NCBI GenBank assembly: GCA_050010195.1
Contig: JBEKLM010000001.1
Coordinates: 129,045-193,044, forward strand
Length of the DNA stretch: 64,000 nt
From: Verrucomicrobiia bacterium
GTDB lineage: Bacteria; Verrucomicrobiota; Verrucomicrobiia; Palsa-1439
Direction: 5' to 3'
This document shows positions 3,574 to 43,900 of this stretch, in pieces. The notes under the pieces were generated by a model that did not search any database, was not told the origin of the DNA, and worked only from the letters and a program-made list of their open reading frames with translations. Position 1 is the first letter of the stretch. Each line of letters starts with the position of its first letter. A program made the translations under genes and the position numbers.

Positions 3574-6500
3574 TTACGGCAATAGGACGCGGACGCGGTA
3601 GAACCGGGTGGGACTGGCCAGTATGTTGGAGTCGGTCATGCTGGTGATGGTGCCGGAGCCGTTGCCGCCGCTGAGGATGTTGGTCTGGCCCGTATCCTGC
3701 CAGCCGCCGTTGGTGTAGCTGCCGTTGGCGGTGCCGGTCATGTAATCCAGCACATTCGTCCGTGATTGGACGCCCGGCACGTAGTTGGTATCCCCGTTGG
3801 CGCCAAGGTAGGTCACGACGACGTTGGTATTGCCCGACAGGAACTGCTCCTGGATGCTGATGACGTGCAGATAGGCCGCCGCGTTGGTGGGGTTGAAGCC
3901 CGCCATGAACTTGTTGGTGTTGCTCATGCCGTCGCCCGTGTAGGAGGCGTTGGGACCACTTGACGCGCCGGTGAGGCCGTAGAACTGCTGCCACTGCGCG
4001 AACGTGTAGGGAGACACGGTAATGGTGCCCATATTGGTGCTGGAGCCGGCCGTGTTGGCCACAATCTGGGTCACCGTGTACGTACCCGGATAATCGTAGG
4101 TGTAGCCCGGGTCCTGCGCGGTGGACGTGCCGGTGCCATCCCCAAACGTCCAACTCCAACTCGTGGGCACGCCGGTCGAGGCATCGTAGAAGTTCACCGT
4201 CAAGGGCGCCGGGCCGCTGGCGGGATTGTTCGTGAAACTCGCCACCGGAGGTGTCGCCGGGTTCGCAACAATCAGGTTCACCTGTCCGGCCGTGTTGGTG
4301 GAGATGGTGTACGTGAAATTCGTGTTGGGCGTCGCGCCGAGGGTGATGCCGCTGTAGGTCAATGCCCCGGTGTAGGTGAACAGCGTGTAGGTGGCGTTCG
4401 AGAACCCGCCGCCATCGAATACATTGAGCGTGCCGGCGAGGGTCAGGTTGCTGGTCACGGCGATCACCGCGGCGTTGGAACCAACCCCGAAGTTCAGCGT
4501 CGATGTGCCGCCCAGATTCAGACTGTTGTTCACCGTGAGGGTGCTGCTGCCCAAGGTGAGCCATGGATCGGAGCCGACCACGTTGGTGTGGGTAATGGCG
4601 GCCTGTGTGTTGAAAAACGCCAGCACGTTGTTGGTCGGCGAAACGGTCAATCCGTCGAGTGTCACCAGATTGGCGACGGGTGTGGTATTGGTCACGGTGA
4701 CCTGGGCGTTGTAGAGCGTCAGCGTGTTGGTGCTGCCATCGGTGGTGAGCTGGGAATTGATGATCTGAATGTCCTGGGCGTTATAGACGTCGAAGGTCTC
4801 TCCGTGGGAGGCGATGTTCACGCCGTACAGCGTGAGGTTGGAAAGGGGCGCTTCCTGGCGGGCCCAAATAACGCCCGTGACATTCACGCCGGCGTTGGCG
4901 GTGGCGGTCAGATTGCTGATGAGAATGTTTTGCCAAAACGGGGTGGTGGTGATGACCGGTTGCGGTCCGTACCCGGCGGCGGTGCTGGGAGTGATGTTGT
5001 TGGGGGTTCCCACCTCGTCGTAGAAGCTCCAGATCAGGATCGGGTAGCCCACGTTGGTCATCGTGATGTCGAGATAGGTGAGATTTTGGACCAACCCGCC
5101 GATATCACGGTCGGACTTCATGCGAATGCCATTCGCCGTGCCGTTGAACGTGCAGTTGCTGACGAGCAGATTGTGGACGCCGCCGGAGGTGATGCTGCCA
5201 ATCGACAGACCGTGGCCGGTGCCGAACGTGCAATTGGAGACGGTGATGTTCGCCGCGGGGCCGGCACTGCCGCCGATCTCGATGTTGTCGTCTCCGTCGC
5301 TGATGGAGCAGTTCTGGATCAGTACGTTGGTCGATTGCAGGTCCATCCCGTCGGTGTTCGGCGAGTTGCCCGGCGTGTTGATCGTCAGATTTTGGATCGT
5401 CAGATTGAGATTGTTTCCCTTCAACACCATATGAAATGTCGGCGGGTTTTGCAGGGTCACGCCTTCGATCAGTATGTTCGAGGAACTGCCCTGGATGTTG
5501 ATAAAATCCGGTCGCTGCGCGGTGGACAGGTTCTGCCCCCACCAGTTCGTCGAACCAAACCCCGCGTGGCCGTCAATCGTTCCGGCCCCGCTGATCTCGA
5601 TGTCGTGAACGCCGTTCGCACTGATGAAGGCCGGCAACGTCCCGGGCCAACTGGACTCGGGGAGCATTTGCAGCATCGCGCCGTCGTCGACCTGCAGATT
5701 AACGCTGCTGGAGAGGGTGATCGGTCCGCTCTCATACGTGCTGAGTGTGCCGGCCGACGGGATCTCGACCGTACCGCCGCCCGCGGCGGCGGCCGCATTG
5801 ATGGTGTTCTGAATCGAGCCGGAGTTGTCTGTCACACCATCCCCGACGGCGCCATAGCTTGTGATCAGGAAGTTGGTGGCCGGAATGACCGGCAGCTGAG
5901 GCGTGTTCGGCAACACGGTGAGGATCGCGTTGGAGCTGGTGGTGGACCCGATCGAGTTGCTGGCGACCAGCGTATAGGTGCCGGCGTTGGTGAACTGCAC
6001 GTTTGAGAGGTTCAGGTTTGATGAGGTCGCGCCGGAAATCGGCGCCCCGTTCTGGTTCCACTGATAGGTAATGGGTGTGGTGCCAATGGCGGTCGCGCTG
6101 AAGCTGGCGTTCCCGCCCGCCATCACACTCACGGACGCCGGTTGCGTCAGAAACAGCGGCGCCACGGGATTAGTATTGACGGTCAGAACCGCATTGGAGC
6201 TGGTGACCGCGCCGACGGGGTTGCTCACGACCACAGAGTAGCTGCCTGCATCGGCGGGTTGAACATTGGTCAGTGTGAATGAGGAACCGGTGGCGCCGCT
6301 GAGCAGCGTGTTGGTGTTCTCATACCACTGGTAACTCAGCGGCTGAGAGCCATTGGCCACCACGGTGAACGTGGCGCTCTGGCCCGGAATGACGGTCTGG
6401 TTTTGCAGGTCGGTGGTGATGAACGGGGCAACATTCGTCACCGCCAATGTCGCCACCACGCTCGTCACCGAGCCGTAGGCATTGGAAATCAGGACCGAGT

Positions 6501-7539
6501 AACCGCCCGCTGCGGCAATCTGAACATTGGTGAGCACCAGCGTAGTGTTGGTGGCGCTGGCCACGGGCGAGTTGGTGTTGTAATACCACTGATAAAACAG
6601 CGGGAGCGTGCCGTTGGGGCCGACGGTGAACGTCGCGGTTTGCCCCGAGGAGAGATCCTGGTCCTGCGGCTGAGTGATGATGGATGGCGCAACGGGCGCG
6701 GACGTGACCTGCACCTCGACTTGTGTAAAGTCGTTTGTGACGGGGGCCTCTGTATTGCCCCCCGGACGATAGGCGATGCCATCAAAACTGAAGTTGGTCG
6801 CCGAGTAGTCGGTCGTCGAATCAGAAAGAGTCGCGCCCGTGACGAAGTTCGACCAGGTGATTGCGATGACCAGCGAAGTAAGGTTCGTCCGTTGGAGAAC
6901 GAACTGCAAACTGTACGGGGTCAGATTGGCAAAGCCGTCAAATGAGTTTGTATTGAGCTGGTCTTTGGCTATTGAAATCCAATCTCCGCTCGCTCCCAGC
7001 AGGCTGCTGTCGGACAGGAGCGTGCGTTTGCGGATATCAATGGGCTGGTTGTCGGCGAACGTCCCGTACACCTTGCCGAACAGCGCGTACCCTTGCACGA
7101 AGAGTCCCTGGGAGCTACTGCTGAACGAGCCGTCGTTCGTCACGCGTAGTGGCACATTGCTTCCGTTGGCAAAATCGAACAACCCGATCCGAAAGCCCTC
7201 CGAAGCGCTCCCGGGAGTTGGCACTCCATTGAAGGTAAAACCGAATGTCGCCGTAAACGTGTCACCAACATTCAACTGGATCGGGGGGCTGTTGGTCGTC
7301 GGAGTGAAATAGGTGATCGCCATGCCAGAGCTGCCCGTCACCTTCATGACCAGAGCGCCGCCGGACGTCGTCAGCGACCCCAAGCTGGAGGCGAACCAGG
7401 CTGACGTGGTCGGCAGGTTTTGACTCGTGCGATTGCCGTTGGTCCAGTTGGTCTGGTTCAGATAAACAGTGGCTTGGCTGGGCAACGCCAGCCCTAAGAC
7501 AGCAACCGAAGCAAGAATGACTATCCCGAATCGCCTCAT
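3574..7539 (-). CDS. Giant secreted multi-domain protein (about 1320 aa). It has an N-terminal lectin-like domain, Ig-like I-set repeats, a GH28 polygalacturonase-type right-handed beta-helix, autotransporter-associated beta-strand repeats and a PKD domain. It ends with the conserved C-terminal domain ...RFYRVRVLLP.
   Basis: Signal peptide MRRFGIVILASVAVLGLALPSQA starts at the ATG at 7539; upstream in-frame starts extend to 7617. GH28 motifs are present in order: NTDG, DGDD, GHG, RMK(RIK). The PKD-like segment is WSWTFGDGTGTSTAQDPGYTYDYPGTYTVT. There are three Ig-like repeats of the form QWYxNTN...TLTNVQ...G.YSV.VSN. Confidence 0.8.
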   Translation of the reverse strand: MRRFGIVILASVAVLGLALPSQATVYLNQTNWTNGNRTSQNLPTTSAWFASSLGSLTTSGGALVMKVTGSSGMAITYFTPTTNSPPIQLNVGDTFTATFGFTFNGVPTPGSASEGFRIGLFDFANGSNVPLRVTNDGSFSSSSQGLFVQGYALFGKVYGTFADNQPIDIRKRTLLSDSSLLGASGDWISIAKDQLNTNSFDGFANLTPYSLQFVLQRTNLTSLVIAITWSNFVTGATLSDSTTDYSATNFSFDGIAYRPGGNTEAPVTNDFTQVEVQVTSAPVAPSIITQPQDQDLSSGQTATFTVGPNGTLPLFYQWYYNTNSPVASATNTTLVLTNVQIAAAGGYSVLISNAYGSVTSVVATLAVTNVAPFITTDLQNQTVIPGQSATFTVVANGSQPLSYQWYENTNTLLSGATGSSFTLTNVQPADAGSYSVVVSNPVGAVTSSNAVLTVNTNPVAPLFLTQPASVSVMAGGNASFSATAIGTTPITYQWNQNGAPISGATSSNLNLSNVQFTNAGTYTLVASNSIGSTTSSNAILTVLPNTPQLPVIPATNFLITSYGAVGDGVTDNSGSIQNTINAAAAAGGGTVEIPSAGTLSTYESGPITLSSSVNLQVDDGAMLQMLPESSWPGTLPAFISANGVHDIEISGAGTIDGHAGFGSTNWWGQNLSTAQRPDFINIQGSSSNILIEGVTLQNPPTFHMVLKGNNLNLTIQNLTINTPGNSPNTDGMDLQSTNVLIQNCSISDGDDNIEIGGSAGPAANITVSNCTFGTGHGLSIGSITSGGVHNLLVSNCTFNGTANGIRMKSDRDIGGLVQNLTYLDITMTNVGYPILIWSFYDEVGTPNNITPSTAAGYGPQPVITTTPFWQNILISNLTATANAGVNVTGVIWARQEAPLSNLTLYGVNIASHGETFDVYNAQDIQIINSQLTTDGSTNTLTLYNAQVTVTNTTPVANLVTLDGLTVSPTNNVLAFFNTQAAITHTNVVGSDPWLTLGSSTLTVNNSLNLGGTSTLNFGVGSNAAVIAVTSNLTLAGTLNVFDGGGFSNATYTLFTYTGALTYSGITLGATPNTNFTYTISTNTAGQVNLIVANPATPPVASFTNNPASGPAPLTVNFYDASTGVPTSWSWTFGDGTGTSTAQDPGYTYDYPGTYTVTQIVANTAGSSTNMGTITVSPYTFAQWQQFYGLTGASSGPNASYTGDGMSNTNKFMAGFNPTNAAAYLHVISIQEQFLSGNTNVVVTYLGANGDTNYVPGVQSRTNVLDYMTGTANGSYTNGGWQDTGQTNILSGGNGSGTITSMTDSNILASPTRFYRVRVLLP

Positions 7540-7898
7540 CCTACATGCCCTTTCCAAACGAAACACTACGGAATCCATGTTCTTACAAGGGAATCTGGGA
7601 CAGTTGCGTCCGAGCAATGACTGGTGGGCTGATAACCGCGACCACCGGGCGCTACCGTCTCACGATTCTTTTCCCGTACTCCCTGTTTAACATATCATCC
7701 GCTGCTCCAGACTGCAATTCGACACAGAGAGCCAAAACGGTCATGGACAGAAAATGCGCTGTAAAACACGGGAACATATGCAGGGAAGACACTTATTACC
7801 AGCTTACCCTGCCATGACAGAACCCATGCTGACCACGCTCCCTGACGGGTCCTGCTCCTTCCCCGTTACGAAGACATCTCCACACGACGTGCCTCGCT

Positions 7899-10800
7899 TT
7901 AGGGAACCAAGCGGACACGATAGTAACGGGATGGATTGTTCGTGGCTCCGCCCGAGTCAACATAATTGGTCGAGGTATCGCCACCAGTACCGGGCAGGAC
8001 CGTCTGCGAAGGCGGGAGGTCCGCAAAGTTGTTGGTGTTGTATCCGCCGTTGGCGTCCCCGCTGGTGACCTGCACCGCATTCGTATGTCCGCCCGCCGTC
8101 GTCCACGTAATCACGACATTGGTGCCCTGCGGCACGACCGAAACGATTCGGAACAGCGAGGCGCTATTGGTCGGATCCAGCCCCACTAGGAATTGGTTGG
8201 TGTTACTCATCCCCTTGCCGAGCGGATCAGCATTCGCTGCCGCTTGCGGACAGATCGCCAAGTTGGTGCAGGCAAAGTACTGCAATTGCCAGCACGTAAA
8301 CGGATCTCCCGGCGTCACACTCGCGCTGCCGTTCATCGTTGCCGTGCACCCGCTGGTCACGTTGGACGCGATCACCGTGTACGTGCCCACCGCCGTTTGG
8401 TCCGTAAACGAAATCGCGCTGCCCGTGCCGGCAACCAACGCACCGGTGGGACTACCGTTCAATTCCAATTGGTAATCCGCGGTCGATTCCGACCCATCCA
8501 AGCCGACTGTCACGCCGCCGCCAGCAGCGCAGTAGGAGCCGCCGCCGGTCACATTGAATGTCGCCGGACCAGCGCTGACCGTCAGTGTGGCCCCGCCGGA
8601 GGTCGCCGGCGGACTGCACGTGCCGCTGACCACACAATCGAAGCTCGCTCCCGAATCGCCAACCGCCGCATTCGAAATCGTCAAGCTCGCTGTGCCCGAG
8701 CCGCTGATGGTGCCGCCGTTGCCGATATTGGAGCCGTTCTTCTGCCATTGATAACTCAGACCCGCGCCGCTGGTTGAGACGGTGAAACTTGCCGACCCGC
8801 CAGCACAGACGGTCTGGGGCGAGGGACCTGAGAGGATGCCCGGGGCGGCATTGACCGCGACGGACAAACTGGAGCCGTTGCCGGTACACCCATTGGCATT
8901 GGCCGGCGTCACCGTCACGCTACCGGCGATCGAACCCCAATTGACCGTGATGGACGTGCTCCCCTGACCACTGATCGTCGCTCCCGACGGCACAGCCCAC
9001 GTGTACGTCGTCGCGCCGTTGACGCTGGAAATCGAATAGCCCACGCCGGTCTGTCCCGCGCAGACGGTGGTCGGGCCGCTGATCGAACCCGCCGCACCCA
9101 CGCCGGTGATGGTGACCGCCAAACTACTGGACGCACCGCTGCAACTGCCGTTGGTGGGGATGACCGTCACATTGCCGCTGGTAGCCGAGCAAGAGTAATT
9201 GACGGTGATCGAGGTCGTGCCCAGACCGCTGGCAACGGACGCTCCTGATGGCACGGTCCACGTGTAGCCGGTTGCGCCACTGACACTGGAGATTGAGTAC
9301 GCCACCCCGCTGCTCCCCGCGTTGACCGAGCTGGACCCGGTGATGGAGCCTGCCGAGCCGACGGAGCAGGGTGTCGCAACGATCAGGTTCACCTGACCGG
9401 ACGTGTTGGTGGAAACCGTGTAGGTGAAGCTCGGATTAGGCGTCGAGCCAACCGTCAGGCCGTTATACGTCAATGTTCCCCCGTAGGTGAACAGTGTGTA
9501 CGCCGTGTTGGTGAATCCGCCGGCATTGGCGACATTCAGCGTGCCGCTCAAGGTCAAATTGCCGGTCACCTCCGTTTTCGTGGCATTTGTCCCCAAGCCG
9601 TAATTCAGCGTGGATGATCCGCCGAGGCTCATGCTGTTGCTCACGGTGAGCGTGCTGCCGGCCAATGTAAGCAACGGATTCGCGCCGAAAGCACCGCTGT
9701 CAGCCGTCTCGGCCAGACCATTGAACAGGGACAGCACGGTGTTGGATGGCGCCCACAATCCGGTCATCGTCACGGTATTGGCGTTGGGGGCGCTATTGGT
9801 AACGGTGAATTGTGCATTATAGAGTGTCAATGTGTTCGTGCTTGTGTTGGGCGCAGTGAGGTTGGAATTAATGATCTGGACGCCGCGGACGTTATACATG
9901 CAGAAGGTTTTCGTCGGGGCGGAGATGTTCACCTTGCACAGCGTGAAGTTGCTGATGGGCGCCTGCGGCAACCCCCAGAACCACCCGGCAACGTTTCCGC
10001 CGATGGTGTACGCGGTCAAATTGCTGACAGTAATGTTTTCGAAGATCGGGGTGTGCGAGCCGCTATCGCTGAACGTGGCTGCGTCCCCCGGGGTATAGTC
10101 GAAGCTGCTTGTTGGGGCTCCGACGGTATTGTAAGTGCTGTAAAACGCGATGGCAAAATTCACGTTGCTCATGACGAGATCCTTATACACGCAGTTTTGG
10201 ATCACGCCCCCGCGGTCGGTGTCCGATTTGCCCTTGATGCCGTACTCCGTCCCGTTCCAGACGCAATTGCTCACGAGAAGATTGTTGACCCCGCCCTCGG
10301 TGTCGCTGCCGATCGACAGGCCGTGTCCGATGCCGAAAGTGCAATTGGACACGGTGATGTTGTTGGCCGGAGCGCCATTGCCTCCAATCTCAAGGTTGTC
10401 GTCTCCGTCGCTGATGTAACAGTTGCGGATCACCATGTTCGTCGAGGAGATGTCCATCCCGTCGGTGTTTGGTGAGGCCGGAGTATTGATGGTCATGTTC
10501 TGGATCGTGACATTGCCATCGCTGTTTTTCAGGTAGAGGGTGAACGTCGGTGGGTTTTGCAGTGTCACACCTTGGATCAGAATCCTCACCGTATGGTCGT
10601 ACTCTATAAAATTCGGTCGCGAACAGCCGCAGGTCCACCAGCCAGAGGACCCCTGGCCGTCGATCGTGCCGCCACCGCTAAGTTCGCAATCATGGAGCGT
10701 GTTTCCTTCCATGAAAGTGGTCGTGCCGGACCAACTGCTCATCGGCAACATCTGGAGCATCGCCCCGGCGTCGATCTGCAGATTGACACTGCTCTTCAGG

Positions 10801-11150
10801 GTGATAGGCCCGGCCAGATACGTGCTCAACGTGCCGTTGGCTGGGATCTCTACCGTGCCGCCGCCGGCCGCGTTGGCTGCAGTGATGGCGTTGTTGATCG
10901 CGGTCGCGTTGTTTGAGACGCCGTTGCCATACGCGCCGAAGCTCAATACATTGAAATTGGTGGTGGGAATGATCGGCAAATCCGGGTCGGCGTGCCCGGA
11001 CTTGGCGACTGCCAGCAACAACAAGACGGCCCAAGCGGTCGTCCTCCGCCAAGAAGCGGCAGGAAACCGCCTGTGCGACCGTTGATTGTTTTGCACTTGG
11101 AGCTTCACCGTGCGCCTCGCCGAACACCGCGTTCCCGTATGCTTTGTCAT
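7899..11150 (-). CDS. Giant secreted GH28-family beta-helix protein (1083 aa) with beta-strand repeats, tandem Ig-like/PKD-like domains and the conserved C-terminal domain ...NNPSRYYRVRLVP.
   Basis: Signal peptide TTAWAVLLLLAVAKSGHA. GH28 motifs NTDG, DGDD, GHG and KGK are present. Repeated about 88-aa Ig-like units carry GxGTTSITVNYSCSATSGNVTV. The C-terminal module is near-identical to that of the gene at 34330-39720. Confidence 0.8.
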   Translation of the reverse strand: MTKHTGTRCSARRTVKLQVQNNQRSHRRFPAASWRRTTAWAVLLLLAVAKSGHADPDLPIIPTTNFNVLSFGAYGNGVSNNATAINNAITAANAAGGGTVEIPANGTLSTYLAGPITLKSSVNLQIDAGAMLQMLPMSSWSGTTTFMEGNTLHDCELSGGGTIDGQGSSGWWTCGCSRPNFIEYDHTVRILIQGVTLQNPPTFTLYLKNSDGNVTIQNMTINTPASPNTDGMDISSTNMVIRNCYISDGDDNLEIGGNGAPANNITVSNCTFGIGHGLSIGSDTEGGVNNLLVSNCVWNGTEYGIKGKSDTDRGGVIQNCVYKDLVMSNVNFAIAFYSTYNTVGAPTSSFDYTPGDAATFSDSGSHTPIFENITVSNLTAYTIGGNVAGWFWGLPQAPISNFTLCKVNISAPTKTFCMYNVRGVQIINSNLTAPNTSTNTLTLYNAQFTVTNSAPNANTVTMTGLWAPSNTVLSLFNGLAETADSGAFGANPLLTLAGSTLTVSNSMSLGGSSTLNYGLGTNATKTEVTGNLTLSGTLNVANAGGFTNTAYTLFTYGGTLTYNGLTVGSTPNPSFTYTVSTNTSGQVNLIVATPCSVGSAGSITGSSSVNAGSSGVAYSISSVSGATGYTWTVPSGASVASGLGTTSITVNYSCSATSGNVTVIPTNGSCSGASSSLAVTITGVGAAGSISGPTTVCAGQTGVGYSISSVNGATTYTWAVPSGATISGQGSTSITVNWGSIAGSVTVTPANANGCTGNGSSLSVAVNAAPGILSGPSPQTVCAGGSASFTVSTSGAGLSYQWQKNGSNIGNGGTISGSGTASLTISNAAVGDSGASFDCVVSGTCSPPATSGGATLTVSAGPATFNVTGGGSYCAAGGGVTVGLDGSESTADYQLELNGSPTGALVAGTGSAISFTDQTAVGTYTVIASNVTSGCTATMNGSASVTPGDPFTCWQLQYFACTNLAICPQAAANADPLGKGMSNTNQFLVGLDPTNSASLFRIVSVVPQGTNVVITWTTAGGHTNAVQVTSGDANGGYNTNNFADLPPSQTVLPGTGGDTSTNYVDSGGATNNPSRYYRVRLVP
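8190..9300. repeat. Dispersed repeat copy A, about 1.1 kb. It matches 34640-35760 at roughly 90% nucleotide identity. Content is the C-terminal Ig-like/beta-sandwich module of a giant pectinase.
   Basis: Spurious plus-strand ORFs are nearly identical in both places: 8554-8751 versus 35003-35200, and 7966-8475 versus 34466-34924. The encoded minus-strand proteins align over more than 330 aa. Confidence 0.6.
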
Positions 11151-11594: not shown

Positions 11595-12320
11595 CTAGTC
11601 GCCCATAAACCAAGTGTTTTGACTCTGGGAAATACTCTTGCACTGGGTGATGACAGCCTGGATTTCGACATATTCCGCATGCCAGTCTGCACGGAGTGTG
11701 TTTATTCCCCCACCATGCCGGTTCATTATTTCTGAAGTCGAAAAGTCGTTCGGCAATTTCGTTTGGTCAAACTCATATTCTTTCCCATCGGTATCACACA
11801 GCACCAGAAATTCAGAGGGCTTGGGCACTGTATCGACACGGTAAAAATATGCAGAGCTATTCGCGGGATTGGGGTTCATGGGTGAGTATGCCCCATTCTG
11901 AAGCAAGTTGGGCTCGTTTTGGGCGAAGGTATATTGTGCCGCATTTGGAGGCATAACACCAGGCAACCCCCCAAGCTGGCTCTCGCGCATCGGACACGTT
12001 CTCATGTCATAAATCTTGCTGAGCGACCCCGAACTCCCCGCCATGTAACGCAGGTAGGCATTCGTGCACTCAGCGCCACTGTAATCTTGAAACGTAGTCG
12101 ATTGCCAATGCACAGGATCATAGAGATAACCGCCGTAATCGTCGGCATACATGGACATCGCGAGGCCCCATTGTTTCAGTCGGGCAAGGCAATTGGCCTG
12201 TTGCGCCTTCGACCGCGCCTTGTTCAGCGCCGGCAACAACATCGCCGCCAGGATGCCGATAATCGCAATGACCACCAGTAGCTCAATGAGGGTAAACGCT
12301 TTGTTCCTGCTCTGTTTCAT
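11595..12320 (-). CDS. Prepilin-type N-terminal cleavage/methylation domain protein of the H-X9-DG (DUF1559) family; T2SS pseudopilin-like.
   Basis: Class III signal [24 protein letters not shown] follows the Met at 12320. C-terminal motif [14 protein letters not shown] matches H-X9-DG. Upstream in-frame ATGs extend to 12416. Confidence 0.75.
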
Positions 12321-13336
12321 TTGCATCGGATCGGCTGCGCCTCCGGTTGTAAAACTATTTACAATAATCTTGCCCCGTCTTCGGTTCATACTCAGACCGC
12401 GCTTGTTCCTGGTCATTGTCGGTCCGCTCTATACTGCCGAAAGCTTACTTTCTTTCAGAGACTTTGCAAGAAATATGCTGTCGCCGGAGATCCGATTTCA
12501 AGAGCCTGTTCCCTCAGCGATTAGGTATGCTACCCCCGATGCGCCTTTGACAAACCGCTTCGGGAGACCAGTATCTTGGGAGAAGGCGTTACGGTTCACA
12601 GCACCCGGCGTCGCAGGCCACGTGTTAAAATGATGGTGCCGCCCGTGTCCTTGGCGACATGAGCCAACAGGGCGGTGTGGTGTGTCGCCGACAGGGATCG
12701 AACCGTAGCCCTGCTTCGTATTGCTAGTGACCGAAATGTGAAACACCACGACTTCGATCCCCCTCCGTGACTGATCGAACCTGCTTTCACTTTTGTATGT
12801 CATCCAATCAGAATGTTTCCGTTGGGAGTGTTAACGTGTCAAGGGCCAGACTCGTGAAAGGCGGACAAGCGACCGAAAACAACGCGGCGGCGGATTCAGT
12901 GAGGCAGGATTTTTCCGGCTGCAGCTTGCCATTGCACAACCCGCCCAATTGGCTTCGGCGCATCCAACCGCCTTAGACTCTGACTCCGGGGCTTTGAAGC
13001 AATGATTACGGCATCACGAACTGCTCTCCTTACTTGCAATCGGTTGCACGAACAGTTATGGAACCGACCCAACTCCCCCAATATACTTCTTGACAAATTA
13101 ATGCCAGCGTAAGGCCGCGTGACTTCCGAAAGTGTCTGTATTGCCGTCAGACCGTGGGATGTGCGTGCTGTCACCCGTGAAGATTGCCGCTAGTGTACTT
13201 GTCGGCAAATTCCGGTAAAATGGCATTCAACCGTTTGCAAAATGCGCCAGTCCGGCGAGGTTCAGGCCTGGTCTCAACTCTGAGAGCTTCCCCTGTCAGT
13301 GATTGCATATGCTAGGCAAGGAACGGTGAATAGGCA

Positions 13337-13475: not shown

Positions 13476-15404
13476 ATGAGATTCACGATGAATCAGACGG
13501 GAGCAGTCGTGCGCGCATTTCAAAACAATCCTACTAACTCAGTTTCAAAATTTTCTTTGAGGTCACGATCTGCGAAACATATCACCGCCGGAGCGATTGG
13601 CCTCGGCTTGTTGTTCATCGTCGTCGCCAATAGCCAGGCGCAGTCCACGAATTACTGGTGGACGGGTGCCGATAACAATGGCATTTGGGAGGATGCCAAT
13701 AATTGGGTGCTTACGAACGGCGTAGCGGCGACCACGTATCCGGCCAACCCAGTTACGCAACCGCCAGGATCGGAGACCGATGTTGCCATATTTACGAATT
13801 CCGGGACGTACGCGGTAACTGTCACCACTGTCGGCAACCTCAACATCCAAAGCAACTTTTTCAATAACGCGTCGAACAGCACGGCCACGGTCACGCTGAC
13901 CGTGAACAACAGCGGAACGTTCTACTTGCAGGGCGGTGGCACTGACTTTGAAATTGCCGATGGAGTTGACAGCACCTCGATCGTTTATCTGGCGTCTTCC
14001 CCTTCCCCGAACAACGGCCTGATAGTCAAGGGAACGGGCTTTATCGTCGGCCACGATGGCGTTGGCACATTGATCTTCACCAATGGATTTATTAACACCT
14101 CGGCCAGTGTTGTCGTGGACGTGGGATCTGGCGGGGGAAACGGAACGGTCATAATCAGCGGACCGAACACGTATTGGGAAGCCTACCAGTTTGCCATCGG
14201 CGACACGAACGCCAGTTATGGCAATTCCGTCATCATCTCGAATTCAGCGAGCCTTACGGCGGCCAGCACCTTTAGAATCGGCAGCAGCTCCACCACCGGC
14301 TCCAGCAACTGCCTGTTCGTCGTGACCGACGGCGGGTATTTCGCGGTCAACGGAGGCTCGCCGTTGACTGTCGGCAATCGAGGCGGCACGCTTTCTGCCG
14401 CTTCGGCATCGTACAACAATACCGTCATCGTTGGGAATGGCGGCGTTATCAATATTCCCGACCACAGCATTGTCGTGGGAAACTCCGCGACCATGGAATC
14501 GGGAATCAGTTGCAGCAGTTGCGCCGCCGGCGGCACCACCGCCACAGGCAACTTCTTTATAGTCGAGGCCGGCGGTGTGGTGAGTAACGCCACCCAGATC
14601 GCCATCACGACCAGCAACACCCTCGCATTGTACGGTGGGATTTTTGGCGGCGGAAGCCTGACCTACCTCGGAAGCATTACCAACTACGGTGTGTTTCAGG
14701 GCTGGGGCACCATTGTCGGCAGCCTGAATACCGGCAGCAACGTCTTCAACAACGCGCTCGGTTTCACGGCCGTAAGCAACCAGGTCGGAGCGTTGGTTCT
14801 GAGCAATGGCTTCACCACGGCCACGAACACGGTATTGCAAATCTCGTTGGGCACAAATTATTATCCCATTGCGGTCGGATTGGGCCAGGCGGATCCGCCT
14901 GCGAGCGCCTTGGTCTCCAACAACGACCTCGTCCTTAACGGGATCATCAACTTCGTCAACTCGGGCGGGTTCACCGACACCACCTACACGTTGTTTACGT
15001 ATCCAACGTCCCTCGTGGGTGTCAATAGCAACAAGTTCATTTGCGCTCCGGTGATCGGGACAGTTCCAAATCCCAGCCTCACCTACGCAATCAGCACCAG
15101 CACACCCGGTCAGATCAATCTGATCGTTGGCTGCACGAACTGTGCGCCGCCAGTGACGCCAGTGCCGTCGATCACGTCGATCACCCGTGTCAACAGCGGC
15201 CACGACATCTTGCTCCAGTGGAACACGAACGGTACGACGAACAACCACGTGCAGGTCACCACGGGCACGGCGAACGGCAGCTACTCGGCGAGCGGATTCG
15301 CAAACCTGGCCAATATTGTCGTCACCACCGCCACGACCAATTATGTGGATGTGGGTGGAGCAACGAACACCCCGTCCCGGTACTACCGCATCTCGTCACC
15401 GTAA
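13476..15404 (+). CDS. Secreted repeat protein (642 aa) with autotransporter-associated beta-strand repeats and the conserved C-terminal domain ...NTPSRYYRISSP. No catalytic domain was recognised.
   Basis: Signal-like segment HITAGAIGLGLLFIVVANSQAQS. Repeat GFTDTTYTLFTYPTSLVGVNS...LTYAISTSTPGQINLIV. The C-terminal about 90 aa resemble the C-termini of the four giant enzymes. Confidence 0.65.
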   Translation: MRFTMNQTGAVVRAFQNNPTNSVSKFSLRSRSAKHITAGAIGLGLLFIVVANSQAQSTNYWWTGADNNGIWEDANNWVLTNGVAATTYPANPVTQPPGSETDVAIFTNSGTYAVTVTTVGNLNIQSNFFNNASNSTATVTLTVNNSGTFYLQGGGTDFEIADGVDSTSIVYLASSPSPNNGLIVKGTGFIVGHDGVGTLIFTNGFINTSASVVVDVGSGGGNGTVIISGPNTYWEAYQFAIGDTNASYGNSVIISNSASLTAASTFRIGSSSTTGSSNCLFVVTDGGYFAVNGGSPLTVGNRGGTLSAASASYNNTVIVGNGGVINIPDHSIVVGNSATMESGISCSSCAAGGTTATGNFFIVEAGGVVSNATQIAITTSNTLALYGGIFGGGSLTYLGSITNYGVFQGWGTIVGSLNTGSNVFNNALGFTAVSNQVGALVLSNGFTTATNTVLQISLGTNYYPIAVGLGQADPPASALVSNNDLVLNGIINFVNSGGFTDTTYTLFTYPTSLVGVNSNKFICAPVIGTVPNPSLTYAISTSTPGQINLIVGCTNCAPPVTPVPSITSITRVNSGHDILLQWNTNGTTNNHVQVTTGTANGSYSASGFANLANIVVTTATTNYVDVGGATNTPSRYYRISSP

Positions 15405-15711
15405 CGGAAGAAACAGTGGTATATTTTGGAGAATTCAAGCAGCGATCAGCGCAGCCGCACGGAAATGAAAGGTATGACAGCGAATAACAAGTGCCTTCGT
15501 TCACGACTCGGTGAACACCCGGCGGCTGCGCTCTTAATTTGCAGTAGGAATCTGGTGTAATGAAATCTCTCGTCTGGAGAGACGAGAGATGCCCCGCGGT
15601 TCGGGGTCAGAGGGCAAGAAGTAGTAGAAACGTGGAGAATAGGTGTGTGAGGGCTCTAGAGGGTCAAGCACACAAGCAAAACGAGGTATTAAAGAAGGAG
15701 TGGTGAGGGTC

Positions 15712-16731
15712 ATGAAGATAAGGAATCAATGGGTAGTCATGGTAGCCACGATTGCGGCTGCCTCAGCATGCGTCCTGTTCAGCCGGCCGGCGTCAGCGCA
15801 ATATCCGGGACCGGGGCCGACGAATATTTTCGTCGATAATTTCGACAACGGCAGCACAATCAACCAGACGAGCACACCGGGGGGAACACCCGCGGCGTCG
15901 TCGACCAGCTATGATATGACGTCGACCAAGGGCGCCACCGCCTCGATCGCAAGCGGTGATCTGAACATGGAACTGCCATCGTCGAGTTCCACCTTCTTGG
16001 AAGCGGCGGCGATCTTTACGAGCACACCGGTCGTGCTGCAGAACACGGGAGACTACATCGACTTCATTCTCGAGTTCACGGACACCGCCAACCTGACGCC
16101 CAGCAACACTCAAAATGAGTTGGGAATCGGGCTGTTTAATTCCGGCGGGGTTTCCCCGATTACGACCAATATGGGAACCTTCACGGCAACCAGCGGCGGA
16201 GTCCAGGGTTGGACGGGTTATAACAGCCAGATATACGGTTCTGGCGGCACCTCATCGAAAATGAATCAGCGCGCGGCCCAGGCCGTCTCGGCCGGAAGTC
16301 AGGACTTGCTGTTTAATGATGTCGCTTCCAGCACCTACGACAATCCAAAGGGTTCAAACCTTGTCAATGGCGCCTCGGCGTCCACCTTGGCTCTGACAAA
16401 CGGCGCCCAGTACACCGAGGATTTCCGGATTACGCTAACTGGCGCAAGCCAGATCGCTGTGACCAATACGCTGTTTGCGGGTCTCGGCACTGGCGGCACG
16501 GTCGAATATGCCTACGGCGGCTTGAGCAACGTCCTCCCGGCCACAGTCGAATTCGATTCCTTGGCTTTTGGGTTCTTGGAAAAGTCCAGCCTCGTTCAAA
16601 CCCAGGACACCAGTTTGATCGAGATCACCACCGGGAATATCGATAATATCCCCGAGCCATCCACGTGGATGTTGCTCGCGTCTGGCTTCGCGATGATCGT
16701 CGGGCTCGTTGCTCGCCGTCGTCGTAGCTGA
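15712..16731 (+). CDS. PEP-CTERM sorting-domain protein (340 aa).
   Basis: ATG at 15712 with AAGGAG 12 nt upstream. Signal peptide MKIRNQWVVMVATIAAASACVLFSRPASAQ. C-terminus NIPEPSTWMLLASGFAMIVGLVARRRRS is a PEP motif plus TM helix plus basic tail. Confidence 0.75.
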   Translation: MKIRNQWVVMVATIAAASACVLFSRPASAQYPGPGPTNIFVDNFDNGSTINQTSTPGGTPAASSTSYDMTSTKGATASIASGDLNMELPSSSSTFLEAAAIFTSTPVVLQNTGDYIDFILEFTDTANLTPSNTQNELGIGLFNSGGVSPITTNMGTFTATSGGVQGWTGYNSQIYGSGGTSSKMNQRAAQAVSAGSQDLLFNDVASSTYDNPKGSNLVNGASASTLALTNGAQYTEDFRITLTGASQIAVTNTLFAGLGTGGTVEYAYGGLSNVLPATVEFDSLAFGFLEKSSLVQTQDTSLIEITTGNIDNIPEPSTWMLLASGFAMIVGLVARRRRS

Positions 16732-19146: not shown

Positions 19147-19197
19147 TTCCACACAACCTCGTATTTGTTGAACGAATAACTCCCGCCTGCCTGCCAA

Positions 19198-34329: not shown

Positions 34330-37300
34330 CTACGGTCCGAGACGAATGCGGTAGTACCGATTCGTCCCACCGGCATCCGGGTAGTTCGTCACCGTGTCGC
34401 CACGCGGCATAACGATCAACGGGCCGCTAATATCGCCGAAGCTGGTGCTGTAGCCGCCGCTGGCCGTGCCTACCGACCCTTGCACGATGTTGGTGATCAC
34501 GGTCGGGCCGTTGAATGATGCGGCGTTCAGGTCGCCGCCGGACGTCTTCCACGTCACCGTGTTGGTGCCGCCCGTCTGGCCGATCGCGATGATCCGGAAC
34601 ACCGAAGCCGGATTCGTGGGGTTCAGCCCCAGCAGGAACTGGTTGGTATTGCTAATGCCCTTGCCGGAGGGATCCGCGTTTGCCGCGGCTTGCGTACAAA
34701 GGGTACCGTCATTGGTGCAACCGAAGTACTGGAATTGCCAGCACGTAAACGGATCGCCCGGCGTCACACTCGCGCTGCCGTTCATCGTCGCCGTGCATCC
34801 GCTGGTCACGTTGGACGCGATCACCGTGTACGTGCCCACCGCCGTCTGGTTCGTGAACGAAATCGCGCTGCCCGTGCCCGCGACCAGCGTACCGGTGGGA
34901 TTGCCGTTCAGTTCCAACAGGTAATCCGCGCTCGATTCCGATCCATCCAGGCCGACCGTCACGCCGCCGCTGGCCGCGCAGTAGGAACCGCCGCCGGTTA
35001 CATTGAATGTCGCCGGACCGGCGTTGACCGTCAGCGTCGCTCCGCCGGAGGTCGCGGGCGGGCTGCACGTGCCGCTGACCACGCAATCGAAGCTCGCTCC
35101 CGAATCGCCCGTGCCCACGCCGGTGAGCGTCAACGTGGTCGTGGTCGAGCCGTTGACGGTGCCGCCGTTGCTGATATTCGAGCCGTTCTTCTGCCATTGA
35201 TAACTCAGACCTGCGCCGCTGGCTGAGACGGTGAAACTTGCCGACCCGCCATTACAGACGGCCTGTGGCGAGGGACCCGACACGATGCCCGGGGCGGCAT
35301 TGACCGCCACGGACAAACTGGAGCCACTGCCGGCGCACCCGCTGGCGGACGGCGTCACTGTCACGCTACCGGCGTTCGAACCCCAGTTGACCGAGATTGA
35401 CGTGCTGCCCTGGCCGCTGGCGACCGTCGCTCCGGTCGGCACGGTCCATGCGTAGGTCGCCGCACCACTGACGCTGGAAATCGAATAGCCCACGCCGGTC
35501 TGTCCCGTGCAGACGGTGGTCGGGCCGCTGATCGAGCCCGCCGCACCGACGCTGGTGACGGTGACTGGCAGACTGCTGGCCGTGCTGCTGCAACTGCCGT
35601 TGGAGGGCGTGACTGTGACGCTGCCGCTGGCAGCCGAGCAAGAGTAATTGACGGTGATCGAGGTTGTACCCTGCCCGCTGGCGATGGACGCGCCCGATGG
35701 CACGGTCCAGGTATAGGTGGTTGCGCCGCTGACGCTGGCGATGGAGTATGCCACGCCGCTGCTGCCCGCGCCGACCGCGCTGGATCCAGTGATCGAGCCC
35801 GCCGCGCCCACGCCGGTGACGGTGACCGACAGACTGCCGGCCGTGCCGTTGCAACTGCCGTTGGAGGGCGTGACTGTGACACTGCCGCTGGCAGCCGAGC
35901 ACGCGTAGTTGACGGTGATCGAGGTGGTGCCCTGGCCGCTGGCGATGGACGCGCCCGACGGCACGGTCCAGTTGTAGGTGGATGCGCCGCTGACACTGGC
36001 GATGGAGTACGCCACGGCGCTGGCCCCGGCGTTGACCGCGCTGGATCCGGTGATCGAGCCCGCCGCGCCGACGGGGCACGCGTTGGAAACCAGCAGGTTC
36101 ACCTGCCCGGCTGTGCTCGTGGAAATCGCATAGGCATACCCGGCGTTGGGCGTCGTGCCAATGGTCAGTCCGCTGTAGCTCAACGCGCCACTATAGGTGA
36201 ACAGCGTGTAGGTCCCGGTGGTGAATCCGCCACCGTCGCTGATGTTGAGCGTGCCACCCAAAGTCAGACTGCCGGTCGCGGCGATCTTCGCGGTGTTGGT
36301 GCCGAGCAGGAAGTTCAGCGTCGCGCCGCTTAGATTTACGGCGTTACTCACCGTGAGCGTGCCACTGCCCACCGTGAGAACTTGATCAGGGCCGAGCACG
36401 CTGGCATCGCCAATCGTGGCGACCCCGTTAACGAGGCCGATGATGTTGTTGGTCCCCGGCACAACCGCTCCGCACACTGTCACCACATTGGTGCTGGGAA
36501 CGCTGTTGGTGATGGTGACCTGCGCGTTAAACAGGGTAAGAGCGTTTGTCTTGATCGGGGTACCCAGGTTGGAGTCGATGATCTGGACAGCCTGGGCATT
36601 AAAGACAGTGAACGTCCGATTGGTAGGCACGATGTTCACGGCGTCGAAGACGAGGTTGGAAATCGGCACTTCCAATCGTCCCCAAATCATTGCCGAAACA
36701 TGCTGCCCCAAGCTCGACACCGTCGCCGTCACGTTGCTGAAGGTAATGTCGCGATAGATCACGCAGTTGTTGGTGGAATCCACGTCCTCGCCGGCCGCGT
36801 CCTCGGGACTGATGTCGTCGGGGGTGCCCTCTTCGTTGTAATAGCTGTACATCACGATCGGATACTCCACGCTGTTCATGGTGAGATCGCAATACCTGAG
36901 ATTCTGCACCAAACCACCCGAGCCGCTGCCGCTAGCGGCATTGTCGGACTTACAACGAATGCCGTAGATGGTGGTGTTCCAGGTACAATTGCTCACGGTG
37001 AAGTTCTTTAACCCGCCGGAAATGTTGCTGCCGACCGATATGCCGTGACCGCCGTTAAACGTGCAGTTGGAAACGACGATATTCGCCGAGGGGAGGCCCG
37101 TATCATTTTTGATGCAAATGTCGTCGTCCCCATCCTGGATCCAACAGTTCTGGATCAGGCAGTTGGTGACCGAGACATCGACTCCGTCGGTGTTGGGTGA
37201 ATTGGTCTCGGTGTTGATGGTAATGTTCTGGACCGTAATGTCGCCGTTTCCGCCGATCAGCCTGAAATGGTAAAAGGCCGGGTTTTGCGCCGTGACGTTC

Positions 37301-40072: not shown

Positions 40073-40966
40073 TCAGCGACAGCGGCGACGAACCAGTCCG
40101 ATCATCAGGGCGAGGCCCGTTGCGAGCAGCGCCAACGCCGACGGTTCGGGGATACTCGTGGTGATTGTGACGGAATCGACGTCCATGGCCGACGGAACGT
40201 CGGCCCCGTTCGAATACCAACCGAACGCCAGACCATCGAAGGTGCTGGTCAGATTAGTGGCACCCCCGGCGGTGCCGAACGTCTGCGAGAGAACACTCCC
40301 GCCGCTGGACAGGGTATTGGTGATGGAGAGCACACCGGCGGCACTGATCCATATTCTGAGGTCGTTCGTGTACGTGCTGCCCTTGGTCAACGCCGCTGAG
40401 GATGTTGCAGTGGCACCGTTTACTATTACTCCCTGGGGATTCTTGTATGCGAAACTGGAACTGTTCCCATTGCCGAGTAGATCCTGCTCATTTCCAGATG
40501 TCTGTGCCGGGCGGGTGAAGATCTGCGAAGCCCCGTTGTTCGTGGCCGTCATCCCTACGTACCCCAGCCAGTTCTGAACGCCGCCCGTATTGGTCACGGT
40601 GTCTGAATTGTCTGTGAGGGGCGCAACGCCACCGGAATTGTACAGTCCCATGTAGAGTTGCGCGCTTGTGCCGGCCAAAAGGTTCGAGGTGTCGTTGAAC
40701 ACCAATTGAAAATCAATAAAACCACCGACGTTCTGCAGCGCGACCGGCGAGGTGGTAAACAACGCCTGCGCTTCGACGCCGACGCCCGCCCTTTCTTCGC
40801 ACCGAGGGACCGCGCTACGGTCCGAGACGAATGCGGTAGTAGCGGGACGGGTTGTTGGTCGCGCCGCCCACATCACGATAACTGTTCGTCGCGTTTCCGC
40901 TTCCCGGAACGGCCAGCGGCCCACTGATGTCCAAGAAGTTGGTGGCGTAATTGCCACTGACATCAC
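40073..40966 (-). CDS. PEP-CTERM protein, paralog of 15712-16731. It appears N-terminally truncated (no signal peptide) and may be a pseudogene.
   Basis: C-terminus SIPEPSALALLATGLALMIGLVRRRCR. The body aligns with the 15712-16731 protein (FTSTPVVLQNTGDYIDF versus FTTSPVALQNVGGFIDF). Its 5' end is overlapped by 150 nt of the 3' end of the 40815-44483 gene. Confidence 0.45.
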   Translation of the reverse strand: MMSVAITPPTSWTSVGRWPFREAETRRTVIVMWAARPTTRPATTAFVSDRSAVPRCEERAGVGVEAQALFTTSPVALQNVGGFIDFQLVFNDTSNLLAGTSAQLYMGLYNSGGVAPLTDNSDTVTNTGGVQNWLGYVGMTATNNGASQIFTRPAQTSGNEQDLLGNGNSSSFAYKNPQGVIVNGATATSSAALTKGSTYTNDLRIWISAAGVLSITNTLSSGGSVLSQTFGTAGGATNLTSTFDGLAFGWYSNGADVPSAMDVDSVTITTSIPEPSALALLATGLALMIGLVRRRCR

Positions 40967-43900
40967 CGCTGGTCGCCTGGACCACGTTCGATGGCCCGGC
41001 GCCCGTTGCCCATGTGATCATCATTTCGCCATTGGTTTGTGGCACGACGCTGAGAATCCGGAACACCGAAGACGGATCGGTCGGGTTCAGGCCCAGCAGG
41101 AACTGGTTGGTGTTGCTGATGCCCTTGCCAAGCGGGTCCGCGTTTGGCGCTGCCTGTGGGCAACTGACGCACCCGAAGTAGTTTGACTGCCAAGAGGAGA
41201 ACGGATCTGCCACGGGGATCGTCAGCATCGCCGGGCTGCTGGTGGCGGCGCTCACGCTGTTGCTGACCACAACGGAATAGGCGCCCACATTGGTCGACTG
41301 GACACTCGTGACGGTCAGCGTCGAATTGGTCGCATTGGCGATGGGTGTATTCGTGTTGAAGTACCATTGGTAACTCAACGGCGCGCTGCCGCCGGCAACC
41401 ACGGTGAAGGTGGCGCTTTGGCCCGTCGAAACGGCCTGGCTTTGCGGACTGGCGACGATCATCGGCCCCGTCGGCGCATAGGACGTCACCAACCAGTTGG
41501 TCTTGTTCCACGTGAGCACGCCCGCGCCGGCGCCCGCCGTGGGGCTGGTGACGATGGCTTGCAGTTGGCCCGGATCATCCGGGTAATACGTGTAGGGCAA
41601 TTGGTTGCCCGTCAAATTCCACGAGAAGGGAATGATCGGCGCCTGGGCTGGACCGAAGTCGGCGAATCCGGTGGCATTCGTGCTGTCGCCCCGGTAATCC
41701 GTGGTCGAGCCATCGGTATTGTCAAAGTGATAGATCGAATCGAGCGCCATGATCTTGCCGGTGTATTCCGGATCCGACGGATCGGTCTGGTTGTTGCGAA
41801 GTGGGGTTATGCAATCGATATACACCGATTTCTCTACCAAAATGGCTCCGCTTTCCGTGGAGATCGTGCCGTTGACGGGTGGTTCAAAACTATAGGTGTT
41901 GTTGAGCGTATTTTGATCGGCGGTGCTCATGGTGGCCGCAATCGAATCGCGCAGGCGCCTAGCCGCCAGAACCAACGTGTCGTCCACATAGAGATTGTAA
42001 TCATGCACGTTGCCGGCCCGCAGGCGCGGCACGCAGCGATCCCAGACGCCCAAGTGCAGGTGGTGGAAGGTCATCGAGATGGTCGCGTTATTCGGGTCGA
42101 GATCATTTTGACCCGCCAGGTGCGTCTTGTCATGCGCTTGCATGATCGTGACGATGTTGGTGGTGCTGTAACCATGGGTGCGAAGGAAATTATACATCGG
42201 ATAGCTGGACGGACTCTGTTCCAAATAATTGATCTGCTGCCAGACCCAACTATTGGGATTGGTGGCGCCATCGTCGCCGACGTAATTGCACCAGGAAATG
42301 GTGATGCCCGAGCACCCGGCCTTGGTATCGAGATTGCCGTCGTAAGATTTCGTGAACGTGCAGTGATCCACCCAGATGTTGCTCACCGCACCGCCGTCGC
42401 CCAGCGTGATGAAATCCCAGTCATTTCGATCGTATTGTCCCTTGGTCGACTCATCCCATTCCCACAGTTGGTCGAACTTGAGATTGCGGACGATGATGTT
42501 GCTGCAGTTCTTGATGTTCAACTTGGCGTGATGGATGGCTGAACCGTTTGCGGAGAAAATCGTCAGGCCGTTTTTCTTTTGGACATCAACGTCGCTTTCG
42601 CCGGTCACCAGCAACACGGGATGAAGCAATGGTGTTTCACCGGAGCGGAAAGGTTCGCTGTTGGTTTTCGCAGACGCTTCGATTTCGTCATATCCAAGAT
42701 TGAGGTCGTTCATGATCTCAATGACCTTAACGGTCTTGCTGTTGAGCGCGTTCGCAAGGTCGGTCGCCGTATAAACCTTCGCGTAGTTGGGATCCGTGTC
42801 CACCAGCACGCCGCCGCCGGTCGTCCCCTGGGCAAAGCCGACCAGATTATACTCCGTGTTGACCACGGGCACGGTCGGTGTCACGGTCAGGAAGGCCGTG
42901 GTACTGGTCGCCATGCCTACGCTGTTGGAGGCCGTGACGTAGTAGCTGCCATCGGCGGTTGTCTGGACGTTGGGTAGGGTCAGAGTGGACGAAGTCGCAC
43001 CCGAAATCGGTACATTGTTGAGATACCATTGGTAGCTGATGGGCGCGGTACCGTCGGCGGACGAGGTGAGCGTGGCCGTGCTACCCGCCAAGACCACCTG
43101 CGAAGCCGGCTCCGAAGTAAACATCGGCGCCACGGGGTTTGTGTTCACATTGAGCATCGCGTTGGAACTGGTGGTACTGCCCGCGAGGTTGCTGACGACA
43201 ACGGAGTACAAGCCGGCAGCACCGGACTGAACATTGGTCAGAGTCAACGTGCTGTCGGTGCCGCCAGCCACCGGCGTGCTCGTGTTGAAGTACCACTGGT
43301 AGCTCAGGGGTTCGGAACCGCCAGCTTCGACGGTAAAGGTCGCCGTGTCTCCGGGCAAAACGGTCGTATCCTGCGGCTGCGTGATGATCGTCGGAGGATC
43401 GGGAGTGGTCACGGACAACTGGGCCACCGAACTGGTCACCACCCCGTATACGTTGGACACGATGACAGAATAGCCGCCGGCATCCGTCAACTGCGCGTTT
43501 GTGATTGTGATTGAGAAACTTGTGGCATTGGTCAGAAGCGAGTTGGTGTTGTAATACCATTGATAGAAAAGTGGCAACGTCCCACTGGCCAGAACGCTGA
43601 ACGAGGCCGTCTGGCTCACGAAGACTTGTTGGTCCTGCACATCTTCCGTGATCGAGGGAGCCGTAGCCCCGGGGATGTATTCCACTTTGACTTCCTGGAA
43701 TACGGTACTGGATGCTGCCTGGGTCGCCTCCGACGGACGGAAGCCAATCCCGTCAAAGTTGAAATTCGTGGCGTTGGTGTCGGTCACGGAAGTCAACAGA
43801 GTCGCGCCGTTGGTGGCATTCAACCAGGAGACGGTAACCGCCATCGCGTTGCTTGCGGTTCGTTGGAAGGCATACTGCAACGTGTAGGTCGTGCCATTGA

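Follow-up and report, generated by a model that had tools for sequence, protein, structure and literature searches.

The attributes that characterize small C-terminal sorting signals have been listed by Haft (bioRxiv 10.1101/2023.06.07.544157), and the tripartite signals LPXTG, PEP-CTERM, GlyGly-CTERM, and MYXO-CTERM are built from a signature motif, a transmembrane helix, and an Arg cluster. The C-terminal domains of type IX secretion system (T9SS) cargo (Por_Secre_tail, TIGR04183, type B) are beta-sandwiches of about 80–100 aa, which are located at the extreme C-terminus of Sec-exported multi-domain carbohydrate-active enzymes (CAZymes) and adhesins, often behind PKD or Ig domains, and occur in many copies per genome on diverse cargo. 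A lineage-specific C-terminal domain of Fibrobacter succinogenes CAZymes, the basic terminal domain (BTD, also BTD/Fpm-1), was long termed an anchoring domain of unexplained mechanism (PMC3079729) and was subsequently proposed as a T9SS secretion signal (PMC6851124). Dockerins are usually C-terminal on secreted polysaccharide-degrading enzymes as well, possess two tandem calcium-loop-plus-helix units, and mediate docking rather than catalysis. Here, we analyzed a stretch of 64,000 nucleotides (the window) of a Verrucomicrobiia bacterium of the lineage Palsa-1439 (GenBank assembly GCA_050010195.1, contig JBEKLM010000001.1, positions 129,045 to 193,044 of the forward strand), which encodes four pectinases and a repeat protein sharing a C-terminal module. 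Throughout its family, this module obligately closes multi-domain, non-lipoprotein carriers exported by Sec, namely polysaccharide-degrading enzymes and adhesin-like proteins.

In the window, the GH28 pectinases A, B, and C, the PL1 pectate lyase D, and the 642-aa repeat protein E were found to carry homologous C-terminal modules, ending R[FY]YR[VI]..P at the stop codon. A hidden Markov model (HMM) built from homologues scored all five, with E-values from 1e-61 to 4e-20:

Gene A, 3574-7617, minus strand, likely ATG at 7539: signal peptide, family-less N-terminal region, three Ig domains, GH28, PKD, module; C-terminal end PTRFYRVRVLLP (RFYRVRVLLP, then stop). Module at 3577..4005, minus strand, HMM E=3e-36, a divergent sub-family ending RFYRVRVLLP.
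Gene B, 7899-11150, minus strand: signal peptide, GH28, PKD_6 plus Ig, module; C-terminal end NNPSRYYRVRLVP (RYYRVRLVP, then stop).
Gene C, 34330-39720, minus strand: signal peptide, repeat region, Ig, GH28, three PKD_6 domains, module; C-terminal end TNRYYRIRLGP, then stop. Module at 34333..34755, minus strand, HMM E=4e-49.
Gene D, 40815-44516, minus strand, likely ATG at 44483: signal peptide, family-less N-terminal region, Ig, pectate lyase, Ig, module; C-terminal end NNPSRYYRIRLGP (RYYRIRLGP, then stop). Module at 40818..41207, minus strand, HMM E=8e-58.
Gene E, 13476-15404, plus strand: signal peptide, repeat region without Pfam match, beta-only module; C-terminal end NTPSRYYRISSP (RYYRISSP, then stop). 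Partial module at 15150..15401, plus strand, the beta-sandwich half only, HMM positions 43-127, E=4e-20, end RYYRISSP.

The original prediction, made from the sequence of the window, had named these five open reading frames (ORFs), which do exist and end as quoted, and had described their common ending at 7899-8300. These coordinates mark the 3' end of gene B, a minus-strand gene, with the module itself spanning 7902-8309. As predicted, the module is common to all five proteins, though in full only to A–D, since E possesses merely the beta half and does not contain the part W..YF...GKG.SNTN. Sec-type signal peptides, judged by eye, were present on all five proteins and revealed no lipobox. Scanning the window in six frames for R[FYW][FY]R[VILMA] resulted in the five carrier sites, each located 3–5 residues before the stop, and a single unrelated match, 49 residues away from the stop of an open frame of 116 codons.

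Comparison of the five proteins revealed several blocks of common sequence. A and D have about 600 N-terminal residues in common (49% identity), A and B the GH28 domain (59%), and the N-terminal 400 aa of E showed 30% identity to the N-terminus of C. The last c. 500 residues of B and C, comprising the PKD_6 array and the module, are 75% identical (7899-9400 and 34330-35830, both minus strand), while their N-terminal parts differ, which indicates that 3' segments of genes have been shuffled as blocks among paralogues. The module of A is only 27–34% identical to the other modules of the window. The proteins are thus mosaics with blocks of higher identity, so that the module is not their best-conserved part, and the notion of an invariant tag on otherwise divergent cargo was overstated for this window. 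Apart from that, the first 300–400 residues of the N-terminal region of A and D had no match in Pfam or NCBIfam and represent another uncatalogued domain on these enzymes.

What the carriers have in common is not a peptide tag but a domain of about 130 aa that is autonomous and extracytoplasmic. The AlphaFold2 (AF2) model of the B module was confident and displayed a helical hairpin packed on an FN3-like beta-sandwich. The hairpin consists of a W-Q-x-Q-Y-F helix, usually a CxxC pair, and a loop of the thrombospondin type 3 (TSP3) kind followed by a helix; the predicted final strand is formed by R-Y-Y-R-[IV]-R-L, followed by [VG]-P and the stop codon. For B, the parts are located as follows:

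7902..8309, minus strand: complete module, 136 aa, HMM E=1e-61 over model positions 2-130, AF2 pLDDT 90.3.
8160..8309, minus strand: N-terminal sub-module, residues c. 1–50, with helices at residues 3–12 and 36–41 (AF2); in order, WQLQYF helix, Cys-containing loop, degenerate TSP3-like loop ADPLGKGMSNTNQF plus helix, GLDPTN.
8196-8225, within the sub-module of gene B: loop positions that occur in two states (see below), residues c. 29–38, HMM positions 27, 29, and 36.
7902..8159, minus strand: FN3-like beta-sandwich, residues c. 51–136.
7902..7928, minus strand: tail RYYRVRLVP, forming the last beta-strand (model residues 128–135) plus the terminal Pro; the stop codon is at 7899-7901.

Based on 366 non-redundant terminal modules, conservation extends over the whole domain, with 2.90 bits per position in the N-terminal part, 2.63 in the beta core, and 3.25 in the last 12 positions, and the best-conserved residues include W7, D25, G28, G30, N33, G40, P43, T73, N74, Y124, R125, and R127. 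The tail, which had been regarded as a tag, is therefore the last beta-strand of a folded FN3-like sandwich with domain-wide conservation. C14 and C17 occur together in 253 sequences, are both absent from 92, and occur singly in 21; this paired presence or absence fits a disulfide and thus an extracytoplasmic, oxidising location. The modules are acidic (median pI 4.6 for the 366 modules, only 4% above pI 9), with values of 4.8–6.2 in the window and 8.8 for the beta-only part of E, so that an overall basic, BTD-like character was ruled out. The exposed face of the last strand was assigned from residue alternation only.

These properties bear on the idea that the last c. 12 residues serve as a short linear sorting signal, processed by a sortase-, exosortase-, or rhombosortase-like enzyme. 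Like the tripartite signals, the module shows C-terminal position, copy number, signal peptides, and varied cargo, i.e., four of the attributes compiled in bioRxiv 10.1101/2023.06.07.544157; signature motif, transmembrane helix, and Arg cluster, however, are missing. The highest mean Kyte-Doolittle value over 19 residues was at most 1.15 in the modules compared to 1.62 in the tail of a PEP-CTERM protein of the window, and this absence of a hydrophobic transmembrane segment already contradicts a processed tag. Furthermore, the Arg residues lie within a predicted beta-strand of a folded domain, homology reaches about 130 aa upstream, and the PEP-CTERM/exosortase signal, which is found in the same genomes and at the same locus, comprises 20–35 aa as opposed to the folded 130 aa of the module. 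A linear signal can thus hardly be upheld.

Searches of Pfam and NCBIfam with the full proteins and the isolated window modules yielded no match on the module even at E<=10, and neither fn3 or a related Pfam family at this threshold nor any carbohydrate-binding module family in Pfam was hit. The novelty claimed for the domain hence stands, and its distinction from PEP-CTERM, LPXTG, and T9SS C-terminal domains was borne out as well. A profile search of the PDB sequences resulted in a chance match only (E=0.55), and Foldseek against the PDB returned nothing at E<=1e-3, i.e., no close solved structure. The model superposes on FN3 domains and matches the generic FN3/Ig fold, including Fn3 of cellulosomal enzymes, C-terminal domains of GH3, and the FN3-like domain of pectate lyase 4u49. 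We found no description of this domain in the literature.

The profile of the five window modules detected at least 514 proteins in a 90%-clustered collection, a number limited by the candidate step, and nearly all of the 120 matches listed end in RYYR[IV]RL[VG]P. In a search of 1.84 billion 50%-cluster representatives, 803 matches were obtained at E<=1e-30, a somewhat inflated count. The query alignment (A2) held about 75 upstream Ig/PKD columns, so that its counts (14,735, 3,385, and 803) are inflated by Ig/PKD arrays (P0126, P0136, P0142), and the matches were re-scored with a module-only HMM, which located the module in 142 of the 145 new top representatives. With a single peptide pattern, 279 copies were confirmed in GTDB species genomes. 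The best 80 of these 279 derive from 22 assemblies, all of them metagenome-assembled genomes (MAGs) of uncultured 'Verrucomicrobiia'/'Verrucomicrobiae' from soil, peat, and palsa. The closest locus (L001, MFD01223.bin.2.30) is syntenic with the window at 81–96% nucleotide identity, and the sub-family ending RVRVLLP, represented here by A, was found again in other genomes.

Up to 16 module copies were counted within the sampled parts of one assembly, compared to five in the window. For 88 of 110 modules, the nearest relative resides in another assembly, and mean module identity amounts to 56% within and 54% between assemblies. The paralogues are therefore old and their conservation results from purifying selection; neither gene conversion nor recent duplication accounts for the conserved tail, since nearest neighbours mostly belong to other genomes. 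We also identified a homologous sister family with the C-terminal end FYRI[DN]ISLP before the stop codon and less than 30% identity to the main family. Its AF2 model (pLDDT 93.9) revealed the same helix-helix-sandwich topology as the B module, and profile-profile comparison aligned the two families over the whole module including the tail (99.2% probability, E=8e-20). About 60 of 68 sister-family matches end in ISLP at the stop codon.

The position of the module was determined in 73 genome loci plus the window, chosen around module genes with 20-kb neighbourhoods. In this sample, 133 of 135 copies that reach the end of the HMM terminate 0–4 residues before the stop codon. In the separate set of 50%-cluster representatives, 138 of 145 close with a complete module no more than 6 residues from the C-terminus. 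Both results agree with the extreme C-terminal location originally proposed. One or two internal full copies were detected in about one protein in 10. Internal homologues lacking a conserved terminal tail had been named as evidence against a terminal signal. This objection applies in part: internal copies do exist, though, a few sequences aside that look like fragments or frameshifts, they were seen only where the protein has a canonical copy at its end as well. One protein (P0121) harbors three module copies in tandem, and in a gene of another locus (L068, 6197-10375) the internal copy ends CRFYRVAAEGSS and the protein then continues into another domain.

The 19 internal copies retain W7, D25, G28, G30, N33, P43, D112, Y124, and R125 at 89% or more. 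R127 drops from 99% in terminal copies to 32% in internal ones, T73/N74 from 98/97% to 53/42%, and Y87, F91, and the terminal V-P (P130) are lost there, too. Since internal copies keep [RA]FYR[VI], this core belongs to the structure of the last strand, while the positions lost internally (R127, T73/N74, Y87, F91, V-P) form a further set that is conserved only in terminal domains.

Judging from its sequence, the N-terminal loop plus helix of the module appears to descend from the bacterial TSP3 calcium loop. Relatives with a DPDGDGxxNxxE loop match Pfam TSP3_bac (PF18884; E=3.4e-5, 24 bits against a gathering cut-off of 25), a family that covers about 20 of the 130 residues, and a relative with a DPDGDG loop also gave a weak match to Amuc_1099_fam; the modules of the window themselves had no TSP3_bac match. 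HMM positions 27, 29, and 36 are occupied by D, D, and E in 142 sequences and by [LYF], K, and Q in 184, two mutually exclusive states with almost no intermediates. B, C, and D display the latter, DPDGDG..E being changed to DP[LYF]GKG..Q, so that the acidic ligands are replaced together. The acidic state looks like one that binds Ca2+, and in the other the lysine looks like a substitute for the ion. The N-terminal sub-module or TSP3 motif alone also occurs internally in related proteins, followed by PKD domains.

A calcium-loop-plus-helix unit of the TSP3/dockerin type in a terminal domain of secreted polysaccharide-degrading enzymes raises the question of a dockerin-like assembly, in which the module would plug enzymes onto adjacent PEP-CTERM-anchored proteins to form a cell-bound multi-enzyme pectin-degrading complex. 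The original prediction correctly counted three PEP-CTERM proteins in the window. All of them comprise about 270–360 aa, show no other Pfam domain, and adjoin module genes, two of them flanking gene D:

15643-16728, plus strand: PEP-CTERM protein.
40076-41017, minus strand: PEP-CTERM protein.
44838-45680, minus strand: PEP-CTERM protein.

Of the 16 PEP-CTERM-like ORFs in the sampled loci, 10 have a module gene no further than 1.5 kb away, as compared to a roughly estimated chance expectation of about 5. However, this adjacency occurs in only 8 of 74 loci and thus represents a weak enrichment, these genomes are rich in PEP-CTERM proteins, and the selection of loci was centred on module genes. 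Moreover, the module possesses one loop fused to an FN3-like sandwich instead of the two tandem loops of dockerins, does not match a Pfam dockerin family, and has its calcium ligands replaced by [LYF]/K/Q in about half of the family, including B, C, and D; a cohesin-like family was not recognised either. We therefore consider a dockerin-like complex improbable. The PEP-CTERM neighbours could act as surface partners or substrate binders.

The cargo of 59 full-length representatives comprises 70 Pfam families. PKD occurs in 33 of the 59, typically immediately upstream of the module; further non-catalytic cargo includes Ig, PATR repeats, LamG, DUF11, and RCC1, and catalytic cargo GH28, PL1, PL9, pectinesterase, RGL11, apiosidase-like, GH5, and chondroitinase-B-like domains. 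A stand-alone module gene was not found among the carriers, the shortest of which has 473 aa. Using a strict heuristic, signal peptides were assigned to at least 83 of 118 complete ORFs, with more visible by eye; this number is a lower bound, because the heuristic takes M starts only and frameshifts in the MAGs break ORFs.

The module could instead be an accessory domain of the ordinary FN3-like kind that serves as structural spacer, cap, or glycan binder and would owe its terminal position to ancestry and 3'-end domain shuffling, not to targeting. The generic FN3/Ig fold shared with the domain of pectate lyase 4u49 fits such a role, as do the internal copies, a module no better conserved than its cargo, and neighbourhoods without a partner. 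Since many carriers are pectin-active (GH28, PL1, PL9, pectinesterase, RGL11, apiosidase-like), the conserved, putatively exposed Tyr and Arg could bind an anionic polysaccharide, e.g., polygalacturonate. A binder or spacer, however, gives no reason for the last position in about 96–98% of cases, nor for the exact ending at the stop codon in two families sharing less than 30% identity, nor for the positions that terminal copies retain and internal copies lose; FN3 domains of bacterial glycoside hydrolases (C. thermocellum 3mpc; CtXyl5A 5g56) are mostly internal linkers, in contrast to this obligately terminal module. Furthermore, the carriers without pectin-active domains (GH5, chondroitinase-B-like, LamG, PATR, DUF11, RCC1) speak against substrate specificity. 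A plain accessory role thus seems rather unlikely to us, though it deserves serious consideration.

The reading that we tentatively prefer, at a little short of even confidence, is that of a common C-terminal docking or retention domain for the carriers. After Sec export, the module would bind one common component of the envelope, which could be a protein of the outer membrane or the surface or else a glycan of the surface, and this binding would hold the enzymes at the cell surface or pass them to an export step. T73/N74, Y87, F91, and R127, which are conserved in terminal copies only, together with the terminal L-V-P form a candidate contact surface. Such a role would be comparable to that of a dockerin or a T9SS C-terminal domain, though the module is homologous to neither.

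Several points weigh against docking. The module fold is a generic FN3-like sandwich, and FN3-like domains in other bacteria are frequently spacers or glycan binders. In the window, the catalytic domains are better conserved than the module, and the existence of internal copies indicates that fold and FYR strand need no free C-terminus. The difference between internal and terminal copies is based on a small sample, partly related by descent. Clustering of the neighbours in the 73 loci (20-kb neighbourhoods) resulted in catabolic and pectin genes, AraC regulators, PMT-like/TPR membrane proteins, prepilin-like N_methyl proteins, and small PEP-CTERM proteins as recurrent families, and in no candidate for a translocon, a peptidase, or an outer-membrane partner; a binding partner, cleavage site, or secretion component was not identified. 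Finally, where the carriers reside in the cell is in every case something that we infer.

A further reading is a cleaved domain of the T9SS type, which an outer-membrane translocon would recognise and remove during surface attachment. The module is a beta-sandwich at the extreme C-terminus of signal-peptide-bearing CAZymes and adhesin-like proteins, many copies occur per genome on diverse cargo, and PKD or Ig domains often precede it, which corresponds to the architecture of T9SS cargo. The BTD of F. succinogenes provides a precedent (PMC3079729; PMC6851124). T9SS and BTD domains, however, are described as strongly basic (pI >9, PMC6851124), unlike the acidic module, and do not possess the additional TSP3-like helical hairpin. 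The isolated modules did not match any T9SS sorting domain of NCBIfam or Pfam (TIGR04183, TIGR04131, or a Pfam equivalent) at E<=10, and none of SprA/Sov, PorV, PorU, and GldKLMN was noticed within the 64-kb window, whole genomes not having been scanned. T9SS is known from Bacteroidota and the Fibrobacteres-Chlorobi-Bacteroidetes (FCB) group and is not known from Verrucomicrobiota, the phylum of our host. Taken together, a true T9SS-type domain appears very improbable.

Alternatively, the module might be the recognition domain of an undescribed secretion or surface-attachment route specific to Verrucomicrobia, i.e., an independently evolved functional counterpart of the T9SS C-terminal domain system. 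We regard this as unlikely, though not negligible. If true, it would explain how dozens of large polysaccharide-degrading enzymes are displayed by these soil bacteria without lipid anchors, and the sister family ending FYRIDISLP would constitute a second class of cargo.

With respect to the surroundings of the carriers, the region 3574-48306 represents a pectin and hexuronate utilisation island. Apart from the GH28 genes A, B, and C and the PL1 pectate lyase gene D, it comprises:

23950-25041: PfkB kinase.
25063-25893: KduI.
25779-26657: short-chain dehydrogenase/reductase (SDR).
26685-28052: major facilitator superfamily (MFS) transporter.
31605-32849: UxaE.
32842-34251: UxaC.
46027-47394: GH28 gene.
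47431-48306: BD-FAE esterase.

Some further genes of the window attracted attention. Three adjacent paralogues of about 650–700 aa with C-terminal TPR arrays are encoded at 17104-19197 (minus strand), 19496-21436, and 21463-23529 (both plus strand). Their family was identified in 7 of 73 related loci (14 members), and a relative in locus L031 begins with a multi-pass membrane region. A protein that carries the prepilin-type methylation motif at its N-terminus is encoded directly upstream of gene B (11595-12416, minus strand); 9 of 73 related loci contain a similar family, the C-terminal part of which is H-X9-DG-like. An ECF sigma factor gene (28086-28688, plus strand) is followed by two ORFs without Pfam match (28685-29170 and 29167-30600, also plus strand), the larger of which belongs to a family present in 4 loci; these ORFs may encode an anti-sigma factor and sensor pair controlling the pectin genes. 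Outside the island, abutting or overlapping genes on the minus strand (56673-62758) encode a hybrid histidine kinase/response regulator, a CHASE8-HAMP histidine kinase, a YfiR/HmsC-like protein, and a TonB-dependent receptor.

Verrucomicrobiia of soil and peat are major polysaccharide degraders, almost none of which have been cultured. The domain described here is found on hundreds of distinct protein clusters, and due to its absence from Pfam and NCBIfam these protein ends currently remain unannotated. As a family it is uncatalogued and large, while its fold is a familiar one and so is its likely class of function, namely that of a terminal domain with an accessory or targeting role on CAZymes. 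Defining it gives annotators a model and experimenters a handle on envelope targeting in this phylum. Should the domain have a dedicated partner, it would belong to a new sorting system; if there is none, it would still represent a new domain family with an unusual switch from a calcium loop to lysine.

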